A DNA stretch of 63,605 bases, filler included, from Octopus bimaculoides (taxonomy: Eukaryota), in assembly GCF_001194135.2 (NCBI RefSeq). It is 8 parts of 7 records of this genome, joined end to end, with 100 filler letters (N's around TTAATTAATTAA, not from the genome) between each part and the next. Parts side by side here need not be neighbours in the genome. Positions count along the whole stretch, not along the records: positions 1 to 18,256 come from NC_068996.1; positions 18,357 to 27,649 come from NC_069007.1; positions 27,750 to 39,110 come from NC_068987.1; positions 39,211 to 47,905 come from NC_068988.1; positions 48,006 to 52,917 come from NC_068986.1; 3 more parts are not named here. One strand, 5' to 3'. The translations under genes and the position numbers were made by a program. This document shows, piece after piece, positions 1,130-48,234 of the stretch (positions are counted from its first letter, which is position 1; each line of letters opens with the position of its first letter). Under the pieces are notes generated by a model. That model ran no database searches and was not told the origin of the DNA. It was given only the letters and a program-made list of their open reading frames with translations.

Positions 1130-1177
1130 GTCTTACAGCTGTTTCTGGGACATTATGGATATCCCATCATCAGAAAC
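1130..1177 (-). ncRNA. Type I hammerhead ribozyme motif, intact core
   Basis: Minus strand reads GUUU CUGAUGA UGGGAUAU-CCAUA-AUGUCCCA GAAA CAGCU GUA|AGAC. Stem I GUUU:AGAC, 8-bp stem II, palindromic stem III ACAGCUGU, GUA triplet. Confidence 0.8.
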
Positions 1178-1454
1178 GGTGTGAGAAAATATTTGAGTTC
1201 GAATTATTATGGAAAAGGAGGAAATAGGGAATATAGAGGGAAATAAGAGAATGAAAGTAGAAATAAAATATATAAAAATATTGTAGTTGCAGTTTCATTA
1301 TTCGAGGAAACTGGTGCATATAAGTGGTAAAAAAGTTTCCTGTAGATGGTATGTAAGTTCCAATAGCAGTTCATGTTTAGTCATTTCAAAGCATGGAACC
1401 ATGGAATTAGTGTTGCTCATTCAAAAGGGTTTTCTGGTATATATTTACACGCAT

Positions 1455-2809
1455 ATGGTTAGTGAGAGCTGTGCGAGTCATGTACAGAGATGCTGCCAGT
1501 AAGGTGAGGGTTGGAAATGAGTACAGCGATGAATTCCGGGTAGAGGTAGGGGTCCACCAAGGTTCCGTCCTCAGCTCCCTCTTATTTATCATAGTCCTCC
1601 AGGCAATCACAGAGGAGTTCAAGACAGGTTGCCCCTGGGAGCTCCTCTATGCTGATGACCTTGCCCTAATTGCGGAGTCACTATCAGAACTAGAGGAGAA
1701 GTTTCAGGTGTGGAAGCAAGGTCTAGAATTGAAGGGCCTTAGAGTCAACCTAGCTAAAACCAAAATCCTAATAAGTAGGAAGGTAGATAAANNNNNNNNN
1801 NNNNNNNNNNNNNNNNNNNNNNNNNNNNNNNNNNNNNNNNNNNNNNNNNNNNNNNNNNNNNNNNNNNNNNNNNNNNNNNNNNNNNNNNNNNNNNNNNNNN
1901 NNNNNNNNNNNNNNNNNNNNNNNNNNNNNNNNNNNNNNNNNNNNNNNNNNNNNNNNNNNNNNNNNNNNNNNNNNNNNNNNNNNNNNNNNNNNNNNNNNNN
2001 NNNNNNNNNNNNNNNNNNNNNNNNNNNNNNNNNNNNNNNNNNNNNNNNNNNNNNNNNNNNNNNNNNNNNNNNNNNNNNNNNNNNNNNNNNNNNNNNNNNN
2101 NNNNNNNNNNNNNNNNNNNNNNNNNNNNNNNNNNNNNNNNNNNNNNNNNNNNNNNNNNNNNNNNNNNNNNNNNNNNNNNNNNNNNNNNNNNNNNNNNNNN
2201 NNNNNNNNNNNNNNNNNNNNNNNNNNNNNNNNNNNNNNNNNNNNNNNNNNNNNNNNNNNNNNNNNNNNNNNNNNNNNNNNNNNNNNNNNNNNNNNNNNNN
2301 NNNNNNNNNNNNNNNNNNNNNNNNNNNNNNNNNNNNNNNNNNNNNNNNNNNNNNNNNNNNNNNNNNNNNNNNNNNNNNNNNNNNNNNNNNNNNNNNNNNN
2401 NNNNNNNNNNNNNNNNNNNNNNNNNNNNNNNNNNNNNNNNNNNNNNNNNNNNNNNNNNNNNNNNNNNNNNNNNNNNNNNNNNNNNNNNNNNNNNNNNNNN
2501 NNNNNNNNNNNNNNNNNNNNNNNNNNNNNNNNNNNNNNNNNNNNNNNNNNNNNNNNNNNNNNGTGCGGGTGGCACATAAAAGACACCATTTCGAGCATGG
2601 CCGTTTTCGTGCGGGTGACACGTAAAAGCACCCACTACACTCTCTGAGTGGTTGGCGTTAGGAAGGGCATCCAGCTGTAGAAACACTGCCAAATTAGATT
2701 GGAGCCTGGTGTTGCCATCCGGTTTCACCAGTCCTCAGTTAAATCGTCCAACCCATGCTAGCATGGAAAGCGGACGTTAAACGATGATGATGATGATGAT
2801 GATGATGAT
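1455..2809 (+). mobile_element. 5'-truncated RTE-clade LINE (RT fragment, gap, 3' UTR with (GAT)n tail)
   Basis: 1455-1791 translates without stops to ...GVHQGSVLSSLLF...PWELLYADDL...KGLRVNLAKTK (RT motifs). After the N gap comes the recurrent 3' end GGAAGGGCATCCAGCTGTAGAAAC...GCGGACGTTAAAC(GAT)n. Confidence 0.9.
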
Positions 2810-2870
2810 GTACAAAATCATGCTAGCATGGAAGGCGGACGTTAAACGATGATGGTGATTATGATGATGG

Positions 2871-3160
2871 GAGTTTAGTTCACAGGTGATCTAAATAACC
2901 ACGTATGCTGAGTAAGTGCTGTAACAGATTACCAAGGCTCCAAGCTCATAGCCAAGATGGGAGTTATGGAATCATTGTAGATTTCCAATATAGTGGATAT
3001 ATATTTGCTAAAGAGGACAACAAATGCTAAGGCAAGATAAACATCTCAAGTAATATATATTATTATTATTGGAAAAATTTTAAAGTCTTACTGCTGTTTC
3101 TAGGATATCCCAAAATATGGGATATTCTGTTATCAAAGACAAATAGGGAAAATGTAAAGG
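2871..3160 (-). mobile_element. PLE-type terminal repeat fragment with decayed hammerhead (3085-3140), homologous to 48285-48500
   Basis: Aligns by eye with 48285-48500. Minus strand GUCU UUGAUAA C-AGAAUAUCCCA..UGGGAUAUCCU-A GAAA CAGCA GUA|AGAC keeps the stems of the 1130 motif but has two core substitutions. Confidence 0.7.
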
Positions 3161-3602
3161 GCATAAATTAATTGTTTCCTTAATCTATACCTTTCACTCA
3201 ATGGTCAAAAGTTTCAAACATATTACTTAAGAAACTGACTTTGAATTGGGTGCCTACTTTTTAAGTAGATTGAATTATTATAAAATTATAATTCAATCTA
3301 TATAAAAAGCAGGCTTCCAGGTTTAAAATTAATTTGTAACTTCTAATTAAAAAATAATAAAAATAAAATATATGTATCCATGTACTGTGTTCTACCGTAT
3401 TCTATCTATCTTGGTTGTTCTAATGATAGACATTTCTTTGACAGACAGTTGGCCATCATACAATTGGCTGACAAACAACTTATAGGCAGAACAATTGACC
3501 GACTGAGCAATTTGCTGAAAGGACAATATGTCGACATTTTTTAAAAACAAAGTAAAAATTTCAAAAAAGTTTTATCAGGCAATTGTCCAATTATCCAATC
3601 AG

Positions 3603-3658
3603 CAAATTGTCTGTCGACAAATTGTCTGTCGACAAATTGTCTGTCGACAAATTGTCTG
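3603..3658. repeat. 15-bp tandem repeat (CAAATTGTCTGTCGA), 3.7 copies
   Basis: Identical units seen directly. Confidence 0.95.
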
Positions 3659-3961
3659 CACACAGCTCTAACAAACCAATATATATATATATATATATAT
3701 ANNNNNNNNNNNNNNNNNNNNNNNNNNNNNNNNNNNNNNNNNNNNNNNNNNNNNNNNNNNNNNNNNNNNNNNNNNNNNNNNNNNNNNNNNNNNNNNNNNN
3801 NNNNNNNNNNNNNNNNNNNNNNNNNNNNNNNNNNNNNNNNNNNNNNNNNNNNNNNNNNNNNNNNNNNNNNNNNNNNNNNNNNNNNNNNNNNNNNNNNNNN
3901 NNNNNNNNNNNNNNNNNNNNNNNNNNNNNNNNNNNNNNNNNNNNNNNNNNNNNNTATATAT

Positions 3962-4058
3962 ATAGGAAAATGAAAAAAAGCCAGAATGCTGAACTGGAAG
4001 CATAATTTATTAAATTATGCTTCCAGTTCAGCATTCTGGCTTTTTTTCATTTTCCTAT
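3962..4058. repeat. Perfect palindrome, 48-bp arms, 1-nt spacer
   Basis: 3962-4009 is the exact reverse complement of 4011-4058. It lies at a gap edge. Confidence 0.95.
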
Positions 4059-4144
4059 TATTTCTCCACGTGCGGTTAACACAACCCCACTATTTACTGA
4101 CTTATATATATATATTATTTAACAGGCACAATACATGTTTTTAC

Positions 4145-4199
4145 GTGCTACTAATAGTTTCATATGTTGAGAAATACCTCAAACATATTCATCAGACAC
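4145..4199 (-). ncRNA. Type I hammerhead ribozyme motif, intact core
   Basis: Minus strand GUGU CUGAUGA AUAUGUU-U-GAG-GUAUUU-CUC-AACAUAU GAAA CU-AUU-AG UA|GCAC. Stem I GUGU:GCAC, 10-bp bulged stem II, 3-bp stem III, GUA triplet. Confidence 0.8.
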
Positions 4200-4289
4200 A
4201 AACCACATATCATAACAAACAAAAAATTGAATGAGAGAAGAAACAAGAAAAGTTGAGAAAGAAGCATGTAAAAAACATGGAAGGTTAAA

Positions 4290-4890
4290 AAATGAAAGAT
4301 GAAAAACTGGGATGGAATCCTCAGGCACCTTCTCCATAGGGTCCTGTCAGAAGGAACCATCTTTAAATTTTCCAACTGGATTCCCAAACATAACCAACTG
4401 AAACTATGGACATCATCCATCTTGTTCTTGGTCTATTTCTACATCTGCCAGTTGACTCAGCTTGAAGAATCTGTTCTACAACGTTCTAATCACAAGTCCA
4501 TTGTGCTGCAACTGTGACATCTCAATGCAGAGAAGTAGTGACTATACCTTGAGAGACACCCACCTCCATCTCTCCCATTGATCTTTGAGCTATGCACTCT
4601 GTTGGGTTATGTTATTCCAGAGACCCTTTGGAAGAACCTAATTTCAGACACTTGCATTCATGTCTACTCTTTCAGGCATTACCCAACATTCATGATCAAA
4701 AGTGAAAATAGATTCCAAAAATCAAACTGAAGATTACTGTACCAGCACCTGCAATTCTGGCATCTGATTTGGCCTCTTACCTTCCATCACTTGTGAATAT
4801 GGCACTAAGATATTTAAGCTTCTGCACTTATCTTAGTGATGTTCCACTAACATGCACAGTGCACTGGGAAGACTTCCTTGAGAGGACCAA
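4290..4890 (-). mobile_element. Degenerate RTE LINE 3' coding relic
   Basis: Minus frames give VQKLKYLSAIFTSDG, ECWVMPERV..SEIRFFQRVSGIT, EQILQAESTGRCRNRPRTRW and PSDRTLWRR, resembling RTE thumb/C-terminal motifs, with stops and frameshifts. Confidence 0.7.
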
Positions 4891-4905
4891 TGTCTCAGTA
4901 TTCGC

Positions 4906-4953
<48 letters not shown>

Positions 4954-6177
4954 AAAGAAAATACCATTCATCTCATTCGATAGGATTTAATAATTGCATG
5001 ACTCAGTTCCATATAACTCAAAGTTTTGTGGAAGTGTCGGACGCATCCATCTTCTCAGATGTTCTCTGCCTGTGAACATCTGATGGGTTGGATATGTCCT
5101 ACATGTCAATGAATCTTTAATCATTCGATGTTGAATGAAACTGTTATTAAATGTGTGTGTGTGTGTGTGTGTCAGTGTGCATGTGTGTGTCAGTGTGCAT
5201 GTGTGTGCGTAAGTATATATGTATGTATAGAATAATAATGAGAATAAGATAGAACAAAATTAATCTCTTTGTGGCCACTGCAAACCCTTGTAATATTTTC
5301 TTTTTCTTCTCAGTTTCAAGAAAGCTAAACAATATTGATGCAAATATCTGGATGGGAAATTAGAAATGAATATTTTAATAAAGTTAGGCAATGGGCCTGG
5401 TTGTAAAGCTTTGAATTTTGCTTTACAAAACACATGATTTCAGGTTTAATTATACTGCATAACTTCAGAATTTAATACATTATTTACATTATTTACATTT
5501 GACAGATATTTGTCATCATCTTGTTTGTATACTGCAAGCCAAACTTTACTGGATGATACCTCAACTTCAATTCCCACCATCCATACAGTGTAAAGAGAGG
5601 AATTGCTTAGTACCTAAAACATTGAGCAAAGAATATAAGTAGCAATCGTGATACCCACCATGAAGAAATGATCAAGCTCAATAACGATCTGTTAAGCAAC
5701 AACTACCCCAAAAGTATAGTATCCACTCCAAATATGAACAAAAGAGAGGATGAAACCCATAAACTGACCACAGTCTGTCTACCCTATGTGAAAGGCCTCT
5801 CTGGAAAGATACAAAAGATATGTGGNNNNNNNNNNTGGTAGGTTATACAAAGGTGAAACATGTCGCCCCCTCAAAATAAGGGTAGAGGAACATCGCAAAG
5901 CTGTGACACAAGGAGATATTGATAAATCGGGTATAGCTGATCATGTATGGAAAACTTGAGAACACCTCCCTCTGTGGGATGAAGTTAAAATAATAGACAG
6001 AGAACACCACTGGAAAATACGAAAACTAAAAGAAGCAGCACATATGCTAGGACACAACAACCTCCTAAGCAGACTGAGTGTAGATGTGAACAGGATATGG
6101 GAACCAGTGTTAAGGAAAGATAGAAAGATATTAGATTTATAGGTCCTAAAATTCACTCCATAATTGCTCACGGGCAT

Positions 6178-6237
6178 ACTGTGTAGTGGTTAAGAGTGTG
6201 GACTACTAACCCCAAGATTCCGAGTTCGATTCAGTGA

Positions 6238-6240
<3 letters not shown>
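6178..6240 (+). promoter_or_regulatory. tRNA-like segment (Pol III A and B boxes) inside the PLE terminal repeat
   Basis: GTGTAGTGGTTAAG (A-box-like), anticodon-loop-like CTACTAA, GTTCGATTC (B box, 6224-6232). A homologous segment occurs at 25760-25811 on the minus strand. Confidence 0.7.
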
Positions 6241-6270
<30 letters not shown>

Positions 6271-6328
6271 CGACAATAACATTAAAAAATACCTTAGGAA
6301 TGAGAACCCAGGTTCAAAATTTCCCCAA

Positions 6329-6374
6329 GACACCTGATGAAGGCTGGAAGGTATATCAGCTGAAACGTTATGTT
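6329..6374 (+). ncRNA. Hammerhead motif (extra-A variant) in the PLE terminal repeat, one stem I mismatch
   Basis: GACAC CUGAUGA A GGCUG-GAAGGUAUAU-CAGCU GAAAC GUU|AUGUU. The sister copy at 25624-25669 has GUGUU, which restores stem I. Confidence 0.7.
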
Positions 6375-6489
6375 GACAACAAACAAGATGAGGACAAATA
6401 TCCATCAAATGTAAATAATGTAAATAATGTAAGTAATTCCTCATCTCTTAAATATAGAACTGTATTCAGAATTTATGTTAGAAAAACTC

Positions 6490-9400
6490 AAAGAAGCAAA
6501 CTAATCTGAAAAAGGAAGAGTTGGAAGCTTATGGATCCTTTGAATAAACAGAGTTAGAAACTTAATTGAAGAATTCGATGACATGGAAGATGAGATAGAG
6601 ATGTATTGCATAGAGGGCAACTGAAAGTTCCTACAGAATAGCTTAAAAGGGGCCAAAGACCAGATTTGTGGAACATAAGAGCAAAGAAACAGGTTTGGAA
6701 GGTCTGGAAGGGTGGTGGCAGCAGAGAACTATATCTGGTAGTTAGAAGAGAAGCTAGGAGACAAACATATTTATCTAGAGGAGAAGCAGAAAAGAAGTTT
6801 GCCAATGTTCTGTGGTGTGAGGACCAGAAACATAAGGTGTTCCAGATTATAAGACAGTGTGTGAGAGAATATTGTGATGTTGTAGAAGACTTGCAGTTAG
6901 TGATTCTGCAAAGAAAAGAGGCTTGGAAGTGCTACTATGAAAGGCTGCTAAATGTAGAGAATGCATGGGAAAAGGGAAGTCCAAACAGAGGGATTAGCTA
7001 TCTGAGTTGACAGTTAAAGCAATTATGGATATGAAAACAGAGAAAGCCTCTGACCTATCTGGAATTACTACCAAGATGCTTACAATATCCGACAGAGTGA
7101 GATATAGCCAAATCATTCATATAGTTCATCAGGTTGACCAGGAAGAGGTCATAGCCAATAACTGGTGCAGCAGCATTATAGTCAACTGCTACTAAATGCC
7201 TTAGACAGGGGTAATTACAGACGTATCAAACTGATGGATGAGGTCATGACATTTATAGAAAGGGTCATAGGTCAAGTAATTGGAAAGAAAATTAACCTAG
7301 ATGAGATATAGTTTGGCATTGTGCCAGGGAGAAGGACTATGATTTTATTTTCTTAGTAAGAAAACTGTAAGAGAAGCATTTAGCCAAAAATAAACTTCTA
7401 CTTGACATTTCTTGATATGAAGAAAGTCTTTGACAGGTTTCCCACCTGCTCATCTGGTGGTTACTGCAGAAGGCAGGGGTAGATGAGTGGTTGATGAGAG
7501 CCACCCTAGCCATGTATAGGAATGCTTTCAGTAAGATGAAAGTCAGCAGTGAGTAAGTATAACCATGAGTTTAGTATGAAGGTAGGAGTTCACCAAGGAT
7601 TGATTCTCATCTTCCTCTTGTTTATCATAGTCCTACAGGCCATAACAGAAATTTAAAACTGGTTGCTCATAGGAGCACCTCTATGTTAATGATGTTGTTC
7701 TTAAAGATAAATCTCTACAAGAATCAGAGAAGGAATTTCAAGCATGGAAGCAAGGCTTGGAATCAAAGATTCTTAGAGTTAATTTAGCAAATATCAAAGT
7801 ACTACTAAGCAAGAAAGCAGACAAATTAATAACGCCTGTAGGGAAACAGCCCCACTCAATATGTAGAAAAGTTGTTTGTAGAAATTCCATATGGTGTACC
7901 CAGTACAAGCTGTAGACACATAAGAGGTGCAATGGAATCATTGGAAAGTTTACAGAGAAAGTAGTCTTTGTGTGGCAGATGTACAGGAATTATAAACACT
8001 AAAGAACACACAGGATTTCTTCAAATACTTGGGGGATCCTAGTAGTAGTAGAGAGTTTCTGTTACCTAGGTAACCTAATTAGCAATGGAGGAGGTTGCTC
8101 TGAAAGTGTAGTCACTAAAATCTGAATTGGCAGGAGAAAGTTCAGAGAGTCTCACTCTGAGGGTCACTCCCTCAGAGTGAAAGGCAAATTGCATAATGCT
8201 TGTGCACATCCAGCAATGCTACGTGGTAGTGAAACATGGGCTGAGAATGCAGAAGATGTGTGAAAGATTGCAAAAAAAAAAAAAATGAAGTTAACATGCT
8301 TCACTGGATATGCTGTATCAGTGTGCATTTATGCAAGTGTAATGAGAGAAAAATTGGATATAAGAGGAATCAGATGTAGCATGCAGGAGAGGGCTGTGCT
8401 GGTAAGGTCATGTGATGCATATGGATGTAGGCAGCTATTTAAGTTCTGATCTGTAATTTTGCATGGAATATATATATATAAGAGGAAGATCCAGGAAAAT
8501 GTGTGGATGAAGTAGTGAAGAATGACCCCTGGATGTTGAGTCTCTTGGACGAAATGACAAAAGATTGATGCATTGCTATGCTCAAGAAAATCCATCCACA
8601 GAAGCAAAAATGAGGCCCTAAAAACTTGTTAGTATCTATGCTCCTGCACCCAATCTGACCCTTATGAACCAGCCCTTTCTCAAATCCCCACAACTCATGT
8701 CTGTGCACCACCCAATCCATCCCTGACAAACCACCCCCAACAACCAATTTCTTATCATTCCTACAACTCATCTTCCTAGCACCATCCTGTTCCCTACCCT
8801 TCTAACAACAAAAATACCCACTTTGTTGCTGTAATTATAAGACTGCCTCCTTCTATGTGCACCCTTGCTATCATCCTTAACCTCCTTATTTTGCCTCTCA
8901 TTCTACCAATTGTGGTCCCCCACCCCTTCATTTACCCCTGTCCGTTTCACACCATTTCCACCTTCATGTACCTCTGACTTCATCCCTAGCACTGTGCAGT
9001 TCTCTTGCATCCTTACCACCCATCCCCACACTCACTTCACATGATGTTTCTAGCACCTGTAACTCCCTGATTCACACTTATACCCCATCACCTTTTCCTC
9101 CAACAGATATTCACATAGGTGTAGGAGTGGGTGTGTGGTAAGTAGCTTGCTTACCAACCACATGGTTCGGGTTCAGTCCCACTGCGTAACACCTTGGGCA
9201 AGTGTCTTCTACTATAGCCTCGGGCCGACCAAAGCCTTGTGAGTGGATTTGGAAGACGGAAACTGAAAGAAGCCTGTCGTATATATGTATATATATATAT
9301 ATATATGCATGTGTGTGTATATGTTTGTGTGTCTGTGTTCGTCCCCCCTAACATCGCTTGACAACCAGTGCTGGTGTGTTAATGTCCCCGTAACTTAGCG

Positions 9401-10825: not shown

Positions 10826-11013
10826 TAGAGAATGTTAGTTATGACCGGTTCATAGGGTTACCCAGGATTATGTAACCATAAAGCACCTAGTTTTACACAT
10901 GGTGCCTTATAACCTCTCTTCAAGCACAAAAAAAAAGATGAGAGTTTATAGGCCACCGGCCATTAGTGTCTGATGAGACGTGTGTAAAGCTAAGCCATAA
11001 CTAACATTCTCTA
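10826..11013. repeat. Small foldback element with 18-bp perfect inverted ends
   Basis: TAGAGAATGTTAGTTATG / CATAACTAACATTCTCTA. Confidence 0.7.
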
Positions 11014-11370: not shown

Positions 11371-11374
<4 letters not shown>

Positions 11375-11679
11375 CAGTAGTTATCTCCAAGCTAATATGG
11401 TAGTCCAGAAAAATAGGACGAATGCTGCCGTTGATTAGCTCCAAGAGGCCATCGCCTCTAGCTAGCTATGTGACACACGAACCTGTGTCCATTATTACCT
11501 TCGAACAGGGGAGGTCAGCCGCTTCCCTTTGCTGGTCTGACATCTACAGACTAGTTTCGATTCACAGGTTCGTGTGTCACATAGCTAGCTAGAGGTGATG
11601 GCCTCTTGCAGCTAATCAACAGCAGCATTCGTCCTATTTTCCTGGACTGCCATGTTGGCTAGGTGATAACTATTAATAT
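11371..11679. mobile_element. Foldback/MITE, about 310 bp, with about 115-bp inverted arms
   Basis: 11371-11487 pairs with 11563-11679 at high identity. It abuts a (TA)n tract. Confidence 0.85.
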
Positions 11680-12099: not shown

Positions 12100-12897
12100 T
12101 GTAAAAGATAAAAGATATACTGGGATTGGTTTGTTCAACTAAAACCCTTCAAGGTGGTGCCCCAGCATGGCCACAGTGCAATGATTGAAACAAGTAAAAG
12201 ATAAAAGATATACTGGGATTGATTTGTTCAACTAAAACCCTTGAAGGTGGTGCCCCAGCATGGCCACAGTCCAATGACTGAAACAAGTAAAAGATAAAAG
12301 ATATACTGGGATTGATTTGTTCAACTAAAACCCTTGAAGGTGGTGCCNNNNNNNNNNNNNNNNNNNNNNNNNNNNNNNNNNNNNNNNNNNNNNNNNNNNN
12401 NNNNNNNNNNNNNNNNNNNNNNNNNNNNNNNNNNNNNNNNNNNNNNNNNNNNNNNNNNNNNNNNNNNNNNNNNNNNNNNNNNNNNNNNNNNNNNNNNNNN
12501 NNNNNNNNNNNNNNNNNNNNNNNNNNNNNNNNNNNNNNNNNNNNNNNNNNNNNNNNNNNNNNNNNNNNNNNNNNNNNNNNNNNNNNNNNNNNNNNNNNNN
12601 NNNNNNNNNNNNNNNNNNNNNNNNNNNNNNNTGATTTGTTCAACTAAAACCCTTGAAGGTGGTGCTCCAGCATGGCCACAATCCAATGACTGAAATAAGT
12701 AAAAGATAAAAGATATACTTGGATTGATTTGTTCAACTAAAACCCTTCAAGGTGGTGCCCCAGCATGGCCACAGTCCAATGAATGAAACAAGTAAAAGAT
12801 AAAAGATATACTGGGATTGATTTGTTCAACTAAAAGCCTTCAAGGTGGTGCCCCAGCATGGCCACAGTGCAATGAGTGAAACAAGTAAAAGATAAAG
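12100..12897 (+). repeat. 93-bp tandem array built from the SINE family A 3' tail (partly in gap)
   Basis: Unit starts at 12111, 12204 and 12297 (period 93) and units resume after the gap. The unit contains GATTTGTTCAACTAAAA..GGTGGTGCCCCAGCATGGCCACAGTCCAATGACTGAAACAAGTAAAAGA. Confidence 0.92.
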
Positions 12898-12899
12898 GA

Positions 12900-20121: not shown

Positions 20122-20560
20122 CTCCTCACGGCCACTATTTCGCTTCCAATATCTGTTCCTGACATCTTTATATACGTATCTAACTGGTGGCTTATATTGG
20201 GCTTAGCTTTATAAACGGCTCATCGGACTCTAATGGCCGCGGGCAAATAATCTCTTTTACAAACTGGAAGTAGAGAAACGTTACGGTCAGTTAATTTTGT
20301 AAGCAAAATTGTATATTTTGTCTGAGTTATCGCCCTTAGATCGGTTCCAGTTGGCAAATTGTTTACGGTTCCCAATCAACGGACGGGGAATCACACGCCG
20401 GGACATAAGAAGCGGACAAAGACAAGAGGTTGCCTTTTTGATCAGTTTCTGTTGCTAAGTTAGGCGGCCATAAACAAACCAATAGCCATCGTTAAGCAGT
20501 GCTGGTGGACAAACACAGATACAACGATGTGTGTGTGTGTGTGTACGCGCGCACATGAAG

Positions 20561-20880
20561 GCGCATGTCTTAGCGGTTAGAGCATCAGGTTCACAGTCAT
20601 GAGGTAATGAGTTCAATTCCCAGACCGGTCTGTGTGCTGTGTTCTTAAACAAGACACTTTATTCCACTCAGCTGTAGAAATGAATTGTGGCGACATCACT
20701 AGTGCCAAGCTGTATCAGCCTTTGGTCTTCCTTTGGATTACATCGGTGGCCGGGAGAGGGGGAGGCTGGTATACAGGAGCGACTGCTGGTCTTCCATAAA
20801 CAACCTTGCTTGGATTTGTGCCTTGGAGGGGAGCTTTCTAGGTGCAATCCCATGGTCATTCATGACAAAAGGGGGTCCTT
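20561..20880 (+). mobile_element. tRNA-derived SINE (family D)
   Basis: GGCGCATGTCTTAGCGGTTAG...GAGTTCAATTCCC head. A similar head lies at about 25262-25350. Confidence 0.7.
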
Positions 20881-20884
20881 TTTA

Positions 20885-21045
20885 TTCTCTCTGTCTATTT
20901 CCTTGTGTTCCTTTCTGTTCAAGAACGTAGATTCGAAACGTAAAAGACTTTCTCACCTTCCCGAGCATCAAACTAATACACCTGTTTGTTGTTTATACAC
21001 CTGTCTTCGTCTTTCGTTTTTATGTAAATTTCAACTATATATATA
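20885..21045 (+). mobile_element. PLE-type terminal repeat with decayed hammerhead (20911-20946)
   Basis: CUUU CUGUUCA A GAAC-GUAG-AUUC GAAAC GUA|AAAG. Same family as 40453-40630 (minus) and related to 39900-40020. Confidence 0.7.
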
Positions 21046-21210
21046 TAGTAGTTGCATACTGCAAACTTAACTTGACAGTCCTAATAAGGGAATATACTAC
21101 TGCTGTTTAGCCCTAGGAAGCCAGACCGCTTCCTTTTAGGCCTTGACACATTTCCTGTGCCCTTATCCTTACGAGGGGGAGACAAACTCCTCCACCCAGC
21201 CTAGCCTGCA

Positions 21211-21253
21211 TTCAGGGACATGTTTCTGAGTCTTTGCTCGTCATCAGCCTGAA
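21211..21253 (-). ncRNA. Minimal type I hammerhead motif with GUC triplet
   Basis: UUCAGG CUGAUGA C-GAG-CAAAGA-CUC-A GAAA C-AU-G UC|CCUGAA. Perfect 6-bp stem I, palindromic stem III ACAUGU, C.A at the base of stem II. Confidence 0.85.
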
Positions 21254-21724
21254 GTAGCACAGCTGGCTAGATGAAGAAATCTGTTTCACCTTCGTAAGTA
21301 TATACTATTTCAGTGAAATACATTCACTGGTAACAAAAATTAGAAATAATGAATTTCTAAATCTCTCAGAGAGGTGGTGTTTAGCTCAGGTCTATACCAA
21401 GAGATACTTGCCCAAGGTGCCACACAGTGGAATTGAACCCAAGGGCACATGGTTGGTGAAAACCACACTGCCACACCTGCATATTTATTTACACAAATAT
21501 CTCTGCAACTAAACTGTGTGGATTGGCAGTAAAAGTCCACAAAGTCTGATAAGCAGACGGTTGATTTAGCCATTTCTACAAATATTTTCTTCCTTTCTGT
21601 TGTTTTTTTCCTCCAAGCCATTGTTGTTAAGTTGATAGGAGAATTAGGAGTGGAGCTTTATTGGAAGGGTTAACGGAGGCTTTGGGGATTAAGGTTTGGC
21701 ATGGCTTTATAATAGATAGAACAA

Positions 21725-23630: not shown

Positions 23631-23770
23631 TATTATTCTTTAACAAAAAGAGTACTGACAGTGACTTCAAAGTTTTGGCTGGCTGAGCCATCATTGAGTT
23701 GTCCAATGATGGCTCAGCTGACTGAGACTCCAAAGTTCACTGTCAACACTATTCTTGTTAAAGAATAATA
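23631..23770. repeat. 140-bp hairpin element
   Basis: Ends TATTATTCTTTAACAA / TTGTTAAAGAATAATA, centre GCTGAGCCATCATTG-AGTTGTC-CAATGATGGCTCAGC. Confidence 0.85.
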
Positions 23771-25547: not shown

Positions 25548-25811
25548 CAGTTCTATATTTAAGAGATGAGGAATTATTTACATTTACATATGACAGATAT
25601 TTGTCCTCATCTTGTTTGTTGTTAACACAACCTTTCGACTGATATACCCTCCAGCCTTCATCAGGTGTCTTGGGGAAATTTCGAACCTGGGTTCTCATTC
25701 CTTAGGTATTTTTCGATGTTGTTGTTATTATTATTATTATTATCATTATTATTATTATTATTTAGGTCACTGCCTGGAATCAAACTTGGAATCTTGGGAT
25801 TAGTAGCTCGC
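25548..25811 (-). mobile_element. 264-bp solo PLE terminal repeat (truncated tRNA-like head + hammerhead 25624-25669) with 10-bp TSD
   Basis: Reverse-complement homolog of about 6195-6462. ACTGGTTAAA is directly repeated at 25538-25547 and 25812-25821. Confidence 0.88.
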
Positions 25812-27749: not shown

Positions 27750-28183
27750 GTGTAACACACGTTCTTGGACTAACTTCTAGTTGTTTTGCAATGTCTCTTC
27801 AAACAGCGAAGCTTCCTTTCTGAGGGTCCAGGTCGGCAGGGACGAAAATCTGTTTAATCTCTTCGTTGGTTTTTGAATTGCACTATAATTCTATTAACAA
27901 TAGCAAGAGAAATTTGAAAATTTTCGGTAATTTTTCGCTGGCTAAGACCTGCCTCGGATTGCCCAACAATACGACCTCTTTGAAAATCTGACAGTTCTGC
28001 TGAATTTTTTGTGCATGGCATGGTTACTCTTCGCAAATGTTTAATATAATGACACCTGGAATGAAAAAGAGTAATCAAATTGTTAATTCTACACCGCTGA
28101 CATCATATTAAAACACTTAGAGCAGACATTTTGAAAATTAAAGGTGTCTATTTACTTTCTACATGTCTGTGTGCGTGTATATA

Positions 28184-29847: not shown

Positions 29848-29895
29848 GAGTCATATCAGCTGATTTCAGATTTGATTTATCTTCATCAGTGACCC
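29848..29895 (-). ncRNA. Type I hammerhead motif, fully paired
   Basis: GGGUCA CUGAUGA AGAU-AAAUCAA-AUCU GAAA UCAGCUGA UA|UGACUC. 6-bp stem I, 4-bp stem II, 10-nt perfect palindrome AUCAGCUGAU as stem III, AUA triplet. Confidence 0.85.
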
Positions 29896-38951: not shown

Positions 38952-38996
38952 CACACAGACCCGTGTTTCTGGGTAGTAACTCGTCATCAGTGCGTG
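38952..38996 (-). ncRNA. Type I hammerhead motif with GUC triplet
   Basis: CACGCA CUGAUGA C-GAG-UUACUA-CCC-A GAAA C-ACGG-G UC|UGUGUG. 6-bp stem I with one G.U, weak stem II with C.A base. Confidence 0.75.
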
Positions 38997-39041
38997 ATAA
39001 TCACCAGCTAGCAAAGAGAACTCATTCCAAACGCAAAATAC

Positions 39042-39077
<36 letters not shown>

Positions 39078-39911: not shown

Positions 39912-39946
39912 TTTTCTGACGAAGAGCTATGCTCGAAACATCAAAA
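39912..39946 (+). ncRNA. Hammerhead motif (extra-A variant), stem III mismatch
   Basis: UUUU CUGACGA A GAGC-UAU-GCUC GAAAC AUC|AAAA. A in place of G16.2, consistent with CpG decay of GAAACGUC. Confidence 0.65.
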
Positions 39947-40130
39947 ACTCTCTCTTCTTATTGAGCGTCAAACTAACACACTCCTTGCACACGTCCTGTT
40001 GTTGTTTGTTATTGTTAATTTTAAATGTTCCTTTATTTGGTTTGACAATATATATTTAATTATTTCTAAATCTTTCAAAGAGAGGTATTCAGTAACAGTT
40101 ATTTCAAGTAATGGCTATTTGCAAACATAA

Positions 40131-40345
40131 TGTGGGTATCCTGGAAGGGACGATTGTTATTCTGTGTTGATAAAGAGCAATAACCCGGAAACCGGTCCAC
40201 AGATGTTGTCTTGTGCTGGATGGGGGTACTGGACTCCCCTATTCGAAAATATGAGTACACAGATACTGTGTTGTACAGCGAGCTGGAAACAATGTTTCCT
40301 GGGGGCTAAACAACAGTGACAATCATCCCTTCCAGGACAGCCACA
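40131..40345. repeat. 215-bp foldback element with about 33-bp inverted ends
   Basis: TGTGGGTATCCTGGAAGGGACGATTGTTATT / AGTGACAATCATCCCTTCCAGGACAGCCACA. Confidence 0.75.
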
Positions 40346-40548
40346 ATATATATATATATATATATATATATANNNNNNNNNNNNNNNNNNNNNNNNNNNN
40401 NNNNNNNNNNNNNNNNNNNNNNNNNNNNNNNNNNNNNNNNNNNNNNNNNNNNNTATATAGTGAGAATTTACAAAAAAGCAAAAGACGAAGACGGGTGTGT
40501 AAACAACAAACAGATGTATTAGTTTAACGCTCGGTAAGATGACAAAGT

Positions 40549-40584
40549 CTTTTATGTTTCGAGCCTACGCTCTTCATCAGACAG
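40549..40584 (-). ncRNA. Hammerhead motif (extra-A variant), slightly decayed, within PLE-type terminal repeat 40453-40630
   Basis: CUGU CUGAUGA A GAGC-GUAG-GCUC GAAAC AUA|AAAG. The family consensus inferred from 20911 is CUUU...GAAACGUA|AAAG. Confidence 0.65.
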
Positions 40585-41782: not shown

Positions 41783-41901
41783 CGTGTATATGAGTGTGTG
41801 TGTTGATAGAGAAAAAGAGGGGAGATACAGATAGATAGACAGAGAGAGAGAGAGAGAGAGAAATAGATAAAGAGAGGGGAGAGACAGGTAGACAGACAGA
41901 C

Positions 41902-41947
<46 letters not shown>

Positions 41948-42306
41948 GGATAGATAGATAGATAGATAGATAGATGTGTGTGTGTGTGTTCCCCTACAAC
42001 CAACTGATAACCAGTGTCGGTTTCTATGCGGTCCCTTAACTAAAAGACTGGCATAAGTACCAGAATTTAAAACAAACAAGCACTGGGGACGATTTATTTT
42101 AGCAAACCCTTCAATGCGAGGCCCCAACACGCCCAAGGCCCGATGACTTAAACAAGTAAAAGAAGAAATAGAAGATATTTATATAAATTATTTATAAACG
42201 CTTTTATGTCATTAGCAATCACCTGAGCATCTTCAGTTACATATATGTTTGTGTATACACCTATACATATACGCACATACACACATATACATATATATAC
42301 ACATAC

Positions 42307-42340
<34 letters not shown>

Positions 42341-42630
42341 AACGATTTCACTCAGCTCCAAATGATTTGAAGTTTTGTCGGTGCTTGAGATACGTCGTAG
42401 AAGCAGAGTGTCTGCTCGTAGCATCTGATGAGATAGAGGTGTCCTACACGCCCACAAAACTTCAAGTCATGTAGAGGTGTGTCAAACTGTTATCAAAAAT
42501 ATAATTCCTTCCGAATGTGTTGAGTGCTACTTTCTTTAGTTTGTTCTCTCACTCGTGTGTATGTGCATTTAAATTCAAATGCCTTTGTCGTTTTCTATCT
42601 TTAATGAAGTATTTTTCAATCTCTTTTCAG

Positions 42631-43802
42631 ATACCAACGCAGTTACACCATCTTCAAGGCATAAACCAACACGTTTATCCCTGATGAATATTTTCATCAT
42701 TACAGTTGTTGTATCTCTTGGAGTAATGGTGCTCGCAGTGATCTTCATCCTCTGTTACCAAGTGTTCTTTGGTAGTCAAGGTACGAAGTACAAATCAACA
42801 CCTCAAGATGATCTGGATATTGATTTGGACAGATTACCGCAAAATATGTCTTACCATCGCATGAAAGGTAGCAGAAAAAATGCGAAAATCGAAGCCATGG
42901 AGTACCCACGGAATGACATTCTTTACATAAGGGATATAGGCCAAGGTGCATTCGGCCGTGTATTTAAAGCCAAAGCTGCCAATATAGTGAAGGGCGAAGA
43001 ATTAACTTTGGTTGCAGTGAAAATGCTCAAGGATGATGCCTCTGATGATCTGATGCAAGACTTTGAGCGTGAGGCTACACTTATGGCAGAGTTTGATCAT
43101 CAAAACATTGTGAAACTTCTCGGCGTATGTGCCATTGGAAAACCTATGTGCCTTTTGTTTGAGTACATGACAAAAGGGGACTTAAACGAATTTCTTCGGC
43201 TTAGCAGCCCAGAACAGTTTATTGTCTATCGAAGGCCTGTTGATAAGACAGATACAGATAGACCAAAAATCGATCACTGCGATTTGTTGTTTCTTGCAAA
43301 GCAGATAGCAAACGGAATGGTTTATGTTTCAAGTAAAGGTTATGTCCACAGAGATCTAGCAACGAGAAACTGTCTTGTAGGAGATAATTTGACTGTAAAA
43401 ATATCGGATTTCGGTCTTGCTAGAAATGTCCACAGTGTAGACTATTATAAAGGCAGTGAACATGATGCCATTCCAATTCGGTGGATGCCGTTAGAGACAA
43501 TTCTAAACAATAAATTCACGATTGAATCTGATGTTTGGTCATTTGGTGTGGTGATGTGGGAAATATTCTCTTTTGCTTTACAGCCTTACTATGGCATGGC
43601 ACACGAAGAAGTAGTGAAATACGTCAAAGACGGTAAAGTATTGGCATGTCCGGACAACTGCCCCTTGGAGATTTATGATCTCATGCGCCTCTGCTGGAGT
43701 CGAAAACACGTTAATCGACCATCCTTCGAAAGCCTATACAAATCTCTAAACGCACTGCATAGTCGCTATTTACTGGAAAAACGGCTTAAAGAAGTTGTAT
43801 AA
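42631..43802 (+). CDS. MUSK: Terminal exon of a MuSK/Nrk-type receptor tyrosine kinase (TM helix + juxtamembrane + complete kinase domain + stop)
   Basis: Open frame with TM segment [27 protein letters not shown] (about 42690-42770), G-loop [16 protein letters not shown], alpha[81 protein letters not shown] and [11 protein letters not shown] match the MuSK/Nrk subfamily rather than ROR or Trk. Polypyrimidine tract + CAG acceptor ends at 42630 (phase 1). Stop TAA at 43800-43802. Confidence 0.92.
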
Positions 43803-43852
43803 TCGAAACATACCCCTCGCAGTAGGGAGGGGTACGGCTAAAGATGAGGTGA

Positions 43853-44055
43853 AATAAAAATGAGAAAGAAGGGGAGGATGACGTGCAAGAATTTGGTGCA
43901 AGAAAAACGTAAAAGCATTTGAGAAGACACAAGAAAGATTCAGAAGCAATCTGTCGAATTTCTGGGACCGTTTCATCCAGTTTTGGATTTATTCTTAAGA
44001 AATTGTCTCTGCGGACATCACGTATTGTCATTCTTGATGATCATTGTTAAATAAA
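43853..44055 (+). terminator. Candidate polyadenylation signals (AATAAA at 43853-43858 and 44050-44055) for the kinase gene
   Basis: Two canonical hexamers 50 and 250 nt after the stop. In such AT-rich DNA these also arise by chance. Confidence 0.35.
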
Positions 44056-45623
44056 ACTCTAGAATTTTCCTTCTCATTTCATCACCATAAAAGTTTTATA
44101 CGAACTTGCATCTTGCACAAGAATAGTTTCAATATGCATTAACAAGATGTAGAGAGCTATTCTTTCTGACAGTATAGGATACGGTCGAGAGTGACACTAT
44201 TAAACAATGGACACAGAACACAGTCATACTAGAGTTATATATTTACATACACAGCAATGGCACCCTTGTGTATGCGAAAATACTGTAAGAAGTTTTGAAG
44301 TTTCATTTTTATATTTTGCAGTTTTTTTTTCTCTTTTTTTTTTCACGTCAGAACTTCTTTCAGCGTTGCAAATTGTACGACGCCATTGTAAAATGTCACT
44401 GAATCGGTATAGAACGGTGCAAAACATGACATTTGCATACCTGTATAACGCTGATGATGTATAGCCACGATTGTAATATATCTACCTTATATGACCCACT
44501 ATTGCAACATATACTCATGTATATATAACTATACATATATATACATATACATGTGTACATACACATACATATATACTTATATAATCATATTATGTGTATG
44601 TATATGTGTGTGTGTATACATACACACATACATACATATATATATATATATANNNNNNNNNNNNNNNNNNNNNNNNNNNNNNNNNNNNNNNNNNNNNNNN
44701 NNNNNNNNNNNNNNNNNNNNNNNNNNNNNNNNNNNNNNNNNNNNNNNNNNNNNNNNNNNNNNNNNNNNNNNNNNNNNNNNNNNNNNNNNNNNNNNNNNNN
44801 NNNNNNNNNNNNNNNNNNNNNNNNNNNNNNNNNNNNNNNNNNNNNNNNNNNNNNNNNNNNNNNNNNNNNNNNNNNNNNNNNNNNNNNNNNNNNNNNNNNN
44901 NNNNNNNNNNNNNNNNNNNNNNNNNNNNNNNNNNNNNNNNNNNNNNNNNNNNNNNNNNNNNNNNNNNNNNNNNNNNNNNNNNNNNNNNNNNNNNNNNNNN
45001 NNNNNNNNNNNNNNNNNNNNNNNNNNNNNNNNNNNNNNNNNNNNNNNNNNNNNNNNNNNNNNNNNNNNNNNNNNNNNNNNNNNNNNNNNNNNNNNNNNNN
45101 NNNNNNNNNNNNNNNNNNNNNNNNNNNNNNNNNNNNNNNNNNNNNNNNNNNNNNNNNNNNNNNNNNNNNNNNNNNNNNNNNNNNNNNNNNNNNNNNNNNN
45201 NNNNNNNNNNNNNNNNNNNNNNNNNNNNNNNNNNNNNNNNNNNNNNNNNNNNNNNNNNNNNNNNNNNNNNNNNNNNNNNNNNNNNNNNNNNNNNNNNNNN
45301 NNNNNNNNNNNNNNNNNNNNNNNNNNNNNNNNNNNNNNNNNNNNNNNNNNNNNNNNNNNNNNNNNNNNNNNNNNNNNNNNNNNNNNNNNNNNNNNNNNNN
45401 NNNNNNNNNNNNNNNNNNNNNNNNNNNNNNNNNNNNNNNNNNNNNNNNNNNNNNNNNNNNNNNNNNNNNNNNNNNNNNNNNNNNNNNNNNNNNNNNNNNN
45501 NNNNNNNNNNNNNNNNNNNNNNNNNNNNNNNNNNNNNNNNNNNNNNNNNNNNNNNNNNNNNNNNNNNNNNNNNNNNNNNNNNNNNNNNNNNNNNNNNNNN
45601 NNNNNNNNNNNNNNNNNNNNNNN

Positions 45624-45660
<37 letters not shown>

Positions 45661-46169
45661 GTTTATGTACATATGTACATACATGCATATATACTAATTA
45701 ATATATGTTAATTAATGTTGTCAAGCCATTAATCAGCACCTTTTGTTGACTGTTTTCCTTCTTTATTATTATTATTATTTTTTTTTTATCCTCTGTCTCT
45801 TGTGTCCAAATGGAAGACTTCAAGCCGTCTGGCTGTAAACACACGCAAAGACGAAGTTGATGCGGCGGTTACACTTCATGTTGTTGCTGTTGTTGTTACT
45901 GTTGATGATGCTATTGCTAATATTATTGTTATTATTATTATTTTTGTTGTTGTTGTTGTTACAGTTACTGTTATTACTTCGGAAAGAGATAAAGACTGCT
46001 ATTATTCTCCCCACCCCCTTTTTTTTGGCGTCGCTGCCCATCGCTCCGACATTTTTGGCATTTCCCCGCCTCTCTAATGACATAGCATAATTTCTTGCCT
46101 ATTTTAGAAATATAAACACTAACCAACACTAACCATTCTTATTTCAAATTATCATTATCATTATTAACG

Positions 46170-46550
46170 TTTCGAGCTAGCAGAATCGTTAGCACGCCAG
46201 TCAAAATGCTGAGCAGCATTTCGTCCGTTATGAGTTCAAGCCCACCGAAATCGACTTTTCTTTTTATCTTTTCGGATCAATAAAATAAGTACCAGTTGAT
46301 CACTGGAGTCGATGTAATCGACTTACCCACCACCACGAAATTGCTGGCCTTGTGCCAAAATTTTAAATCAATATTCTTATCATTAAGCTTGCAGAATCGT
46401 TAGCACAGCAGTCAAAATGCTTAGCAGCGTTATGAGTTCAAATTTCGCTGAGGTGTGCTTTGCTTTCACCCGGTTGAGATCGATAAAATAAGTACCATTT
46501 GAGCACTAGGGTCGCTATAATCGACTAGCCATTTCCCATAAGATTTCAGG
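46170..46550 (+). mobile_element. Two tandem SINE family B copies
   Basis: GCAGAATCGTTAGCAC head at about 46180 and about 46390, each with the GTCGA/GATAAAATAAGTACC core. Confidence 0.85.
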
Positions 46551-47099
46551 TACGCACTCATAAAGAGGTGTATAAACATGTTTTTTATGCACATATATGC
46601 GTATATCTATACACGCGCACGCGTACACACGTATATATATATATATATATATATATATNNNNNNNNNNNNNNNNNNNNNNNNNNNNNNNNNNNNNNNNNN
46701 NNNNNNNNNNNNNNNNNNNNNNNNNNNNNNNNNNNNNNNNNNNNNNNNNNNNNNNNNNNNNNNNNNNNNNNNNNNNNNNNNNNNNNNNNNNNNNNNNNNN
46801 NNNNNNNNNNNNNNNNNNNNNNNNNNNNNNNNNNNNNNNNNNNNNNNNNNNNNNNNNNNNNNNNNNNNNNNNNNNNNNNNNNNNNNNNNNNNNNNNNNNN
46901 NNNNNNNNNNNNNNNNNNNNNNNNNNNNNNNNNNNNNNNNNNNNNNNNNNNNNNNNNNNNNNNNNNNNNNNNNNNNNNNNNNNNNNNNNNNNNNNNNNNN
47001 NNNNNNNNNNNNNNNNNNNNNNNNNNGAAGGATAAGAGATGTTACAGTATCACTGGAAGTTTATCATTATTATTATTATTATTATTATTAATATTATTA

Positions 47100-47145
<46 letters not shown>

Positions 47146-47190
47146 GTCACCTATTATTTCCAGCTTTCAATGCACCACAGAAAACAACAT

Positions 47191-47226
<36 letters not shown>

Positions 47227-47640
47227 TGTGTGTGTGTGTGTGTGCGAGCGTGTATGCGTGCATGCGCGCCTTGAATAGTTGCAGTGCGTCTTTTTTTTAA
47301 GTTTATCTTTTCTATTTTTTCGAAACTATTGTATGTATGCAGCGCATTAACTGCAGTAGTCTGCAATATGTGCATATCTGTGAGTACTGAGTGGGTTTTG
47401 GTTATGCATTTTCCAGCACTTTTTTTTATGAATCATTCCCATGGTAATTATTATATCATTAGTTATTTTGGTTATCTTTATTTCAAGATCTTTATAATTG
47501 GCTAATTTCTCAAATGGTTTTTAATCGATATATTATCGTCTATCGGGACTGATTCAACGATTAGCAGGAACTTTATTTACTGTATGTTCTTAACAGCAAT
47601 ATCGATCTCATTATCCTGATCTGCTTGCATAAGTAGATCG

Positions 47641-47834
47641 ATGAGCTGGCAGAATGGTTAACACGCCGGACAAAATTCTTAGTGGCATTTCGTCCGTCTT
47701 CACGTTTTCAGTTCAAATTCCATCCTGTCAAGTTCGAAAAGAATACGTACCACCTGAATGCTGGGGTCGATATAATCGACTTACACTTACCTTCTTTCCT
47801 GCAATTGTTGGCCTTGTGACAAAATTTGAAACCA

Positions 47835-47835
<1 letters not shown>
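47641..47835 (+). mobile_element. SINE family B with (ATT)n tail
   Basis: GAGCTGGCAGAATGGTTAACACGCCGGAC head, ...GGCCTTGTGACAAAATTTGAAACC end. Confidence 0.8.
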
Positions 47836-47892
<57 letters not shown>

Positions 47893-48164
47893 CATTATTA
47901 TTATTNNNNNNNNNNNNNNNNNNNNNNNNNNNNNNNNNNNNNNNNNNNNTTAATTAATTAANNNNNNNNNNNNNNNNNNNNNNNNNNNNNNNNNNNNNNN
48001 NNNNNGAGTAAAGGTAAGGGAGTAAAAAAGTCTGTAGTATTCGCGTTCCCTTACCCTTACTCCCTCCCCTTACTTAGCAGTCTATAGCTCTTTTGTCTTA
48101 ATAACGGTCAACCACACAGTAATTTCCCTTTGTTTAACGGTCATTTTCATAGGAATTTTCAATG

Positions 48165-48234
48165 GCCAGATAACTGAAGAGATGGTGGCGTGGGTTTCCG
48201 CCCCAGCATCCGAAACTTGGAGTTTTACCATGGC
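48165..48234 (+). ncRNA. Type I hammerhead motif with long stem II, near intact
   Basis: GCCAGAUAA CUGAAGA GAUG-(GUGGCG..CGCCCCAG)-CAUC C GAAA CU-UGG-AG UU|UUACCAUGGC. Stem I imperfect, GUU triplet, one unpaired C before GAAA. Confidence 0.65.

Follow-up and report, generated by a model that had tools for sequence, protein, structure and literature searches.

Hammerhead ribozyme motifs in a window of the Octopus bimaculoides genome, probably derived from Penelope-like elements and retrozyme-type parasites

Thirteen small hammerhead motifs were located in the window (the whole 63,605-nucleotide stretch of O. bimaculoides DNA that was analyzed), and six of these were intact in shape. The motifs are type I hammerheads, probably contributed by 3'-end fragments of Penelope-like elements (PLEs) and by short non-coding parasites of the retrozyme type, and most appear to be inert single copies at varied stages of decay. 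An origin of this kind had been suggested in an earlier note on this DNA, and it was borne out by a PLE link for one family (D) and a retrozyme-like unit for another (E).

Detection of the motifs and controls

Each of the 12 positions in the earlier note coincided with a hammerhead-like motif, at the point where its helix I ends; a 13th motif, +40167 (family J), was absent from that list. Motifs were labeled by strand and the position of C3 (e.g. -1173), or of U3 where the core was U3-A8. The complete set was as follows:

1130–1177, minus strand: type I hammerhead -1173 (family A), intact, its helix III an 8-nt palindrome; cut site predicted after 1134; score 29.0
3085–3140, minus strand: type I hammerhead -3136 (family A'), U3-A8 core, helices II and III with a single mismatch apiece; score 28.9
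4144–4200, minus strand: type I hammerhead -4195 (family B), intact; score 27.3
6329–6374, plus strand: minimal hammerhead +6334 (family D) in a PLE 3' repeat, first helix I pair broken; score 17.5
20911–20946, plus strand: minimal hammerhead +20915 (family C), core (A6, G8) and helix II broken
21211–21253, minus strand: type I hammerhead -21247 (family E), intact, helix I running on into a long predicted stem; score 22.5
25624–25669, minus strand: hammerhead -25664 (family D), helix III broken, inside the insertion at 25548–25811; score 18.9
29848–29895, minus strand: type I hammerhead -29889 (family H), intact, with a 10-nt perfect palindrome in helix III; score 28.3
38952–38996, minus strand: type I hammerhead -38990 (family F), layout as in E, one helix II mismatch and an imperfect palindrome; score 18.1
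39912–39946, plus strand: minimal hammerhead +39916 (family C, diverged), helix III broken; score 15.4
40161–40203, plus strand: hammerhead +40167 (family J), U3-A8 core, 6-bp helix I; score 19.4
40549–40584, minus strand: minimal hammerhead -40580 (family C), helices I and III damaged; score 12.3
48165–48234, plus strand: larger type I hammerhead +48174 (family G), one helix I mismatch; score 26.7

A strict descriptor (exact core, helices without interruption) was compared with 789 local dinucleotide shuffles. It returned four matches (C3 at -1173, -4195, -21247 and -29889) against a shuffle mean of 0.02 (maximum 1); with one core mismatch permitted, no further real match appeared and the null rose to 0.58 (maximum 4). 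A graded descriptor, open to either core, C3-G8 or the already published U3-A8, was compared with 2,143 shuffles. With this descriptor, for which the score weights were chosen and the U3-A8 core added only once the motifs had been seen, 10 real matches scored at least 17 against 0.143 expected (maximum 3), and six scored at least 22 against 0.015 expected. The similar match density in shuffled sequence that the earlier note had named as refuting its reading was thus not seen. The reversed sequence gave two matches of at least 12, the best of them 15.7.

The motifs scoring at least 22 were -1173, -3136 (U3-A8 core), -4195, -21247, -29889 and +48174. Those scoring 17–20 (+40167, -25664, -38990 and +6334; E 0.05–0.12 per window) had one broken element each. 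+39916 (E 0.29) and -40580 (E 0.91) were each non-significant by themselves, and in +20915 both A6 and G8 were changed; these three were accepted as putative copies of one family (C), not on their own scores. A complete core (C3-G8 or U3-A8) with GAAA and NUH in type I order was present in 12 of the 13, +20915 being the exception. The earlier statement that stems I, II and III are restored every time held for the six motifs scoring at least 22 and not for the other seven, in which at least one element was broken. The helix III palindrome was perfect in 1173, 6334, 20915, 21247, 29889 and 40167, matched at 8 of 9 positions in 4195 and was partial in the other six. Folded alone, the motifs mostly had minimum-energy folds no better than those of shuffles. 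Five weak candidates (+35736, -59226, +42425, -32010 and -26955; scores 11–16, E 0.37–2.7) were rejected as hammerheads, as was the pair 10941–10996 / 20200–20255, which is without GAAA.

All 13 motifs were missed by Rfam, in keeping with the earlier expectation that they would be invisible to annotation. No hammerhead was matched in the whole window at the gathering score, in four targeted stretches at E<=10, or among the best 150 of 177 matches of an E-value scan of the whole window, nearly all of which were microsatellite-driven miRNA matches. The Rfam models Hammerhead_1, HH9 and HH10 have a catalytic core in common with the window motifs, yet none matched in the window; for giant squid, 235 Hammerhead_1 matches are given in the relevant part of PMC6962438.

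Family D and its Penelope-like element

The remaining components of the family D insertions were:

5464–5474, plus strand: left 11-bp target-site duplication (right copy 6465–6475)
5475–5528, minus strand: part of the 3' repeat of the element itself in inverted orientation, matching about 6379–6432, without the last ~32 nt (tail)
5527–6142, plus strand: broken, 5'-truncated PLE ORF end encoding the RT thumb and then a GIY-YIG endonuclease, with stops and a 10-N gap
6171–6240, plus strand: tRNA-like stretch holding B-box-like and weakly A-box-like words, then (AAT)n; placed after the ORF stop and ahead of the hammerhead
25548–25811, minus strand: second family D insertion, ORF-less and 5'-truncated, with a 10-bp target duplication (25538 and 25812)

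Motif +6334 lies 192 nt downstream of the end of the PLE RT–GIY-YIG ORF, on the same strand and within a single insertion. It occupies the terminal repeat of an RT/GIY-YIG element, as does 25664 by homology. The inverted repeat piece, the tail and the target duplication expected of an EN+ PLE are all present; the chance of a word such as the 10-bp duplication of the sister copy was 12/1,500. The ORF fragments match residues 565–666 (60%) and 710–800 (75%) of the full-length relative P0132, and a single ORF with RT, and with a GIY-YIG domain at its C terminus, as in EN+ PLEs, is the arrangement indicated. Another relative, P0097, gave Pfam matches to RVT_1 and GIY-YIG; the window fragment alone gave neither, and NCBIfam and PDB searches returned generic RT matches only. 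The clade name (Penelope/Poseidon-type) was read from motifs of P0132, whose RT-EN linker is without a zinc finger, and not from a tree.

This domain order agrees with that of Penelope/Poseidon-type EN+ PLEs in PMC3846280 (Arkhipova et al. 2013), the Craig et al. 2021 preprint and PMC11167929 (Frangieh et al. 2024), and the insertion anatomy (inverted repeat piece, ~30-nt tail, 8–11-bp target duplication) is as described in PMC3846280. Family D differs from the elements of those accounts in the tRNA-like stretch and (AAT)n ahead of the hammerhead; the tRNA-like stretch is present in part in the 25.6-kb copy, and drew no ARAGORN call and no Rfam match. A tblastn search with 292 PLE relatives revealed no second PLE ORF remnant in the window (a single, weak match at 51813 was rejected), so 11 of the 13 motifs are without a shown PLE gene link. 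Two metagenome scans for PLE relatives with flanks yielded no confirmed loci among 141 and among 499 pattern matches. An alignment of 12 motifs in MAFFT put family D in the wrong place.

Retrozyme-like units and the other families

Two further features bear on the remaining motifs:

21043–21373, minus strand: part (331 nt) of a retrozyme-like unit of ~351 nt, non-coding and self-paired (family E)
48287–48587, minus strand: family A' tail lacking the hammerhead, its 5' arm inverted, with a (TA)n run on either side

The head-to-tail joint of family E (21373 to 21043, with 20 letters between) was found in public data, in one DNA contig and in RNA reads. The junction was continued into by 119 and 112 loose-ended RNA reads; it occurs in DNA as well, and these reads cannot separate circles from tandem transcripts. 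In the window, the unit is present as a monomer with (TA)n at its end, and no two hammerheads stand in tandem. With the joint in the public data, family E agrees with non-LTR retrozymes, which are built of 150–450-bp non-coding head-to-tail units bearing one type I hammerhead each. Motif +40167 (J) sits in a self-paired element at about 40085–40345 that is homologous to E. Fold z-scores were -5.7 for E, -5.1 for J and -1.3 for F; the high self-pairing of non-LTR retrozymes is thus predicted for E and J and not for F.

Homology between E and J extends downstream of the ribozyme (z 15), so the earlier description of the families as unrelated does not hold for all of them. All seven tested pairs among E, J and F differ on both sides with pairing kept, i.e., compensatory change. 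For the earlier view that structure is conserved over sequence, real covariation was seen only within the 21247/40167/38990 group; among non-homologous families, pairing through different bases follows from the selection made by the search and is no evidence by itself.

A (TA)n run was present within 200 nt downstream of 9 of 12 motifs and upstream of 2 of 12 (background 0.164), with thresholds set after looking, the match of 3136 lying inside its element and that of 40580 measured across an N gap. In family G, the run begins 30 nt past the cut site of +48174. Family D, in contrast to most other families, shows target duplications but lacks a TA run; for E, C, B, F and H, the search revealed no such duplication outside TA runs. 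The ~220-nt tail downstream of -3136 is common to 48287–48504. Contigs from two public DNA runs (10,363 and 9,341) align to a 541-bp stretch with C and E, and in most relatives of C among public DNA contigs G8 and helix II are restored. Families A, A', B, C, G and H likely belong to the PLE/retrozyme route, a placement made on architecture alone.

Pfam searches of 144 of 161 ORFs (at least 68 aa) gave only an RT fragment (1411–1791) and a kinase exon above cut-off. The latter is a MuSK/Ror-like terminal exon (42631–43802); a search with 19 relatives located no upstream MuSK exon in the window, and 12 motifs may therefore be intronic. RTE-like RT remnants are also present.

Competing readings, mechanism and precedents

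A reading of the motifs as fortuitous matches in repetitive, AT-rich DNA is scarcely credible. Three motifs are non-significant alone, loose descriptors find about one or two matches per shuffled window, and Rfam is silent; against this, at each of five thresholds none of the 2,143 shuffles equaled the real count, the fold is recovered with family-majority bases, and homologues covary. Chance is refuted for the set, and may account for weak matches outside it such as +35736. It is very unlikely that some copies are host-kept working ribozymes that process or regulate transcripts, e.g. of the neighboring MuSK-like gene. The six intact motifs, the possibly intronic location and the detection of related RNA would fit such a role, but the copies decay like neutral repeats, and upstream of the exon the intact motifs are all antisense (5 of 8 antisense intact, none of 4 sense; small numbers). 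Furthermore, no RNA read-end pile-up was present at 2 of the 13 predicted cut sites (a weak negative, from two unstranded RNA runs of which ~6% was read), and minimal hammerheads did not cleave in vitro as single motifs in the experiments described in the cited part of PMC4209133. The anole PLE study among the three sources named for family D likewise had no RNA-seq ends at the cut site.

A closer competitor, though still improbable, is that most motifs outside family D are independent small mobile RNAs (retrozymes or SINE-like), spread as circles or via non-PLE RTs, with the PLE link confined to D. The non-coding head-to-tail unit of E, the self-paired rods of E and J, the RTE-like remnants and the distinct insertion signature of D favor it. 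On the other hand, the 2026 preprint by Li, Clavereau and Pollet finds vertebrate retrozymes to derive from PLEs, a PLE-type inversion is present in the A' tail copy at 48287–48587, family C matches the published min-HHR consensus with its U-rich upstream flank, and the flanks of G and C fold no better than shuffles.

Under the preferred reading, of PLE fragments and retrozyme-type parasites, a source element would be transcribed as tandem RNA, in which two hammerheads would pair via the palindromic helix III and then cut, probably slowly and aided by protein. Starting close to the 3' repeat, the PLE enzyme would reverse-copy this RNA at a nicked target and would usually stop early; nearly all truncated copies would retain the hammerhead because it is only about 30–250 nt from the 3' end. 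Many PLE and parasite families over time could thereby leave many different hammerheads per megabase, and selection on the fold would have acted in source elements, not in present copies. The hammerhead was dispensable for PLE insertion in vitro, per the section cited of PMC11167929.

The phenomenon is already published (2014, 2020 and 2026), and new at most are the octopus host and possibly a very high density. Large heterogeneous hammerhead complements in animal genomes were published by Cervera and De la Pena 2014 (PMC4209133), and the window as it stands is an instance of what was described then, with PLE hammerheads and retrozymes extended to octopus. In the sections cited, mollusc entries are Lottia and Crassostrea, and "Octopus" has no occurrence in two supplement files; cephalopod terms are absent from the main text of PMC7229834. 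No earlier report of octopus hammerheads or retrozymes was found in the literature searched, subscription papers and Repbase/Dfam entries lying outside it.

This single window gives a density of possibly about 30–200 intact motifs for each Mb, which extrapolates to about 10^5; published counts run to thousands for a genome (S. mansoni about 2,000, coelacanth 4,000 and X. tropicalis 9,000; PMC4209133). We tentatively suggest that the octopus might hold one of the densest animal hammerhead complements, with ~10^5 intact and Rfam-missed motifs, including an old, diversified, TA-targeted retrozyme lineage of ~350 nt in which the fold is kept, the core switches between C3-G8 and U3-A8, and the RNA is circular. 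A further component may be a PLE-type tail family of very high abundance with U in place of the conserved A6 in many copies, which, if true, would mean that spreading can do without strong cleavage. Should the density hold, the dated and diverged copies, hundreds of thousands of them in many families, would supply a natural mutational data set on the role of hammerheads in PLE transposition and an unannotated source of small and circular RNAs in cephalopod transcriptomes.

The window motifs resemble the minimal hammerheads of metazoan PLE pLTRs, as far as the sections used of PMC4209133 describe them, in being type I, in the extra base after A9, in G10.1-C11.1 in most, in the empty or palindromic helix III, in the U3-A8 core variant, and in the large number of sequence families found in one genome, which are mostly single copies left by truncated PLEs; unlike these, several window motifs have an extra purine before G12. 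Family E resembles metazoan non-LTR retrozymes, as presented in PMC7229834 (Cervera and de la Pena 2020), in being non-coding, ~351 nt long (350–390 in mussel), highly self-paired and arranged head-to-tail with one type I hammerhead per unit; it differs in occurring in the window as a monomer with a terminal (TA)n, and it is known here from sequence and reads.

Hammerhead motifs and their controls

The earlier note had listed twelve hammerheads in the window, and all 12 of its coordinates proved to be the helix I ends of motifs. A strict type I descriptor gave four matches, where 789 local dinucleotide shuffles averaged 0.02, and a graded descriptor gave seven at a score of at least 18 (0.127 expected; 2,856 shuffles). 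With the U3-A8 core admitted, ten matches scored at least 17 (0.143 expected), a count reached in none of 2,143 shuffles, the score weights and this variant having been chosen post hoc with the data already seen. The top score in a reversed-sequence control was 15.7. The motif at -3136 (family A'; 3085 in the earlier note), which seemed decayed at first, has the U3-A8 covariant core, published for Schistosoma and also for other natural hammerheads, and scored 28.9 once this form was admitted; an extra motif (family J) emerged at +40167. Of the 13 motifs, six are intact and four carry a single broken element; two fall short of significance on their own, and in one the core is broken. An Rfam search of the window found no hammerheads. 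The hammerhead set as a whole is genuine. Two lesser items were also noted:

53382-53432, plus strand: possible decayed fourteenth motif, with core, GAAA and a near-palindrome like that of family A (-1173), lacking helix I
10941-10996 (plus) and 20200-20255 (minus): two copies of a short repeat, its first half hammerhead-like, lacking GAAA

Elements that carry the motifs

Family D (+6334 and a sister copy at 25548-25811) is a Penelope-like element (PLE). Two broken reading frames 5' of +6334 match the reverse-transcriptase thumb and endonuclease of a large protein family. A full-length member, P0132 (806 aa), carries GxKF, DKG and CCHH, which we take to be PLE motifs, and the relative P0097 matches both RVT_1 and GIY-YIG. 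The hammerhead core begins 192 nt past the ORF stop. Positions 5475-5528 hold part of this element's 3' end in inverted form, with the last ca. 32 nt missing, and an 11-bp word flanks the whole +6334 unit on both sides; the sister copy lacks an ORF and shows a 10-bp duplication. Duplication-like words occurred by chance in 12 of 1,500 random zone pairs. This layout is that described for Penelope insertions (PMC3846280). The damage sites differ between the two copies, and a search with 292 relatives found no second PLE ORF remnant in the window.

Both D copies have a tRNA-like stretch and (AAT)n between the PLE stop and the hammerhead (6171-6270, plus; 25725-25811, minus); this tRNA-like segment may represent the captured head of a SINE, or else a Pol III promoter within the PLE repeat. 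The inversions at 5475-5528 and 48417-48587 each begin ca. 10 nt 3' of their own family's predicted cut site (n = 2).

By thresholds set post hoc, a (TA)4+ run lay within 200 nt downstream of nine of 12 motifs and upstream of two (background 0.164). J also shows the downstream pattern; family D is an exception. A terminal TA run is shared by families C and E, and another by G (+48174) and the A' tail copy. A microsatellite bias is on record for some PLE clades.

Family E (-21247) looks like a non-LTR retrozyme. The stretch 20860-21400, containing E and a family C motif, was compared with two RNA and two DNA runs. A joint from 21373 to 21043, with 20 letters between, was found in one DNA contig and a few reads of each RNA run; another 119 and 112 RNA reads leave 21373, and their consensus enters the same junction. 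The unit is thus about 351 nt and commonly follows another copy of itself; as the junction is present in DNA too, the RNA junction reads are not proof of circles. The E unit folds strongly (z -5.7), with helix I prolonged into a long stem. Downstream of the ribozyme, J shares homology with E (z 15, in one of 182 comparisons), and its fold is strong as well (z -5.1). Family F (-38990) has the same layout, with weak similarity only (z 4.2, upstream, with J) and a fold no better than shuffles. When E, J and F are compared, all six pairs of helix I, and the 3-8 pair too, are kept although both partners have changed, and the covariation score was reached by 0 of 500 shuffles. This is the only proper covariation evidence in the window, and its support is modest, given an alignment of three rows and a structure derived from the same sequences.

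Abundance, activity and a proposed mechanism

Family C (minimal hammerheads +20915, +39916 and -40580) is very abundant: the stretch with C and E drew 10,363 and 9,341 contigs from two DNA runs of differently labelled organisms, which are not copy numbers. In the broken copy at 20915, G8 is restored in 86-95% of reads and >90% of contig depth, as are three helix II positions; A6 is not among the 40 of 121 positions listed. One loose-end consensus (70 contigs) has U at position 6 (window 20918) and two of the three window copies have A, so an abundant U6 subfamily may exist. Hammerheads altered at position 6 are less active.

No pile-up of molecule ends was found at any place in the RNA runs (ca. 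6% of each sampled, apparently unstranded; two of 13 cut sites covered). An anole PLE likewise lacked RNA ends at the cut site, and its cleavage needs protein and is dispensable for insertion in vitro (PMC11167929). Single minimal hammerheads did not cleave in a 2014 study (PMC4209133), and one of nine frog retrozyme dimers cleaved in a 2026 preprint (Li, Clavereau and Pollet). We infer that the majority of window copies are inert.

Five intact motifs amount to a density of 86 per Mb (95% interval 28-200), which would scale to 0.8-5.6 x 10^5 in a 2.8-Gb genome (the O. vulgaris size), and twelve amount to 206 per Mb. These figures come from a biased sample: a single window, chosen for hammerheads, with descriptors unlike those of published counts. 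A coral has >6,000 hammerheads in 16 families. Published totals are 2,000-9,000 minimal hammerheads per genome (PMC4209133); mussel has ca. 5,000 hammerheads and axolotl up to 120,000 (PMC7229834), and for giant squid Rfam gives 235 matches (PMC6962438). No octopus hammerhead study was found in the literature searched; some supplements and the O. vulgaris repeat library lay outside the search and may bear on this result. The feature is genuine and belongs to a known kind; for its host, no report was found.

Insertion anatomy and the cited work suggest a mechanism. Two hammerheads of tandem source transcripts would pair via palindromic helix III, and the PLE enzyme would start copying near the 3' repeat and mostly halt early. 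With the hammerhead close to this 3' end, early halting would keep it in most insertions, and many families through time would yield the observed motif diversity. In O. vulgaris, 31 PLE families have been active recently, in addition to an older expansion of PLEs.

Other contents of the window

Called bases in the window number 58,262; gaps and microsatellites are numerous. A terminal exon of a MuSK/Ror-like kinase, its best relatives molluscan, lies at 42631-43802 (plus); no exon upstream of 42631 was found in the window. 5' of this exon, five of eight antisense and none of four sense hammerheads are intact (small numbers). One retroelement fragment matches, at 80%, a protein labelled Octopus sinensis by its source. 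From the kinase and this fragment, the host is probably a species of Octopus. The long palindromes among the remaining features may be MITEs or inverted micro-insertions:

807-949, 3962-4058, 11371-11679, 23631-23770 and 49434-49691: long palindromes, one nearly perfect across 97 bp
1411-1791 and about 6640-8430, plus strand: reverse-transcriptase remnants of an RTE-like LINE (labelled by eye)
12101-12899: tandemly arrayed 93-bp unit, with a match to the tail of an abundant SINE-like repeat
27857-28102, minus strand: weak transposase HTH match
about 50800-51620, plus strand: mariner-like remnant, recognised by eye
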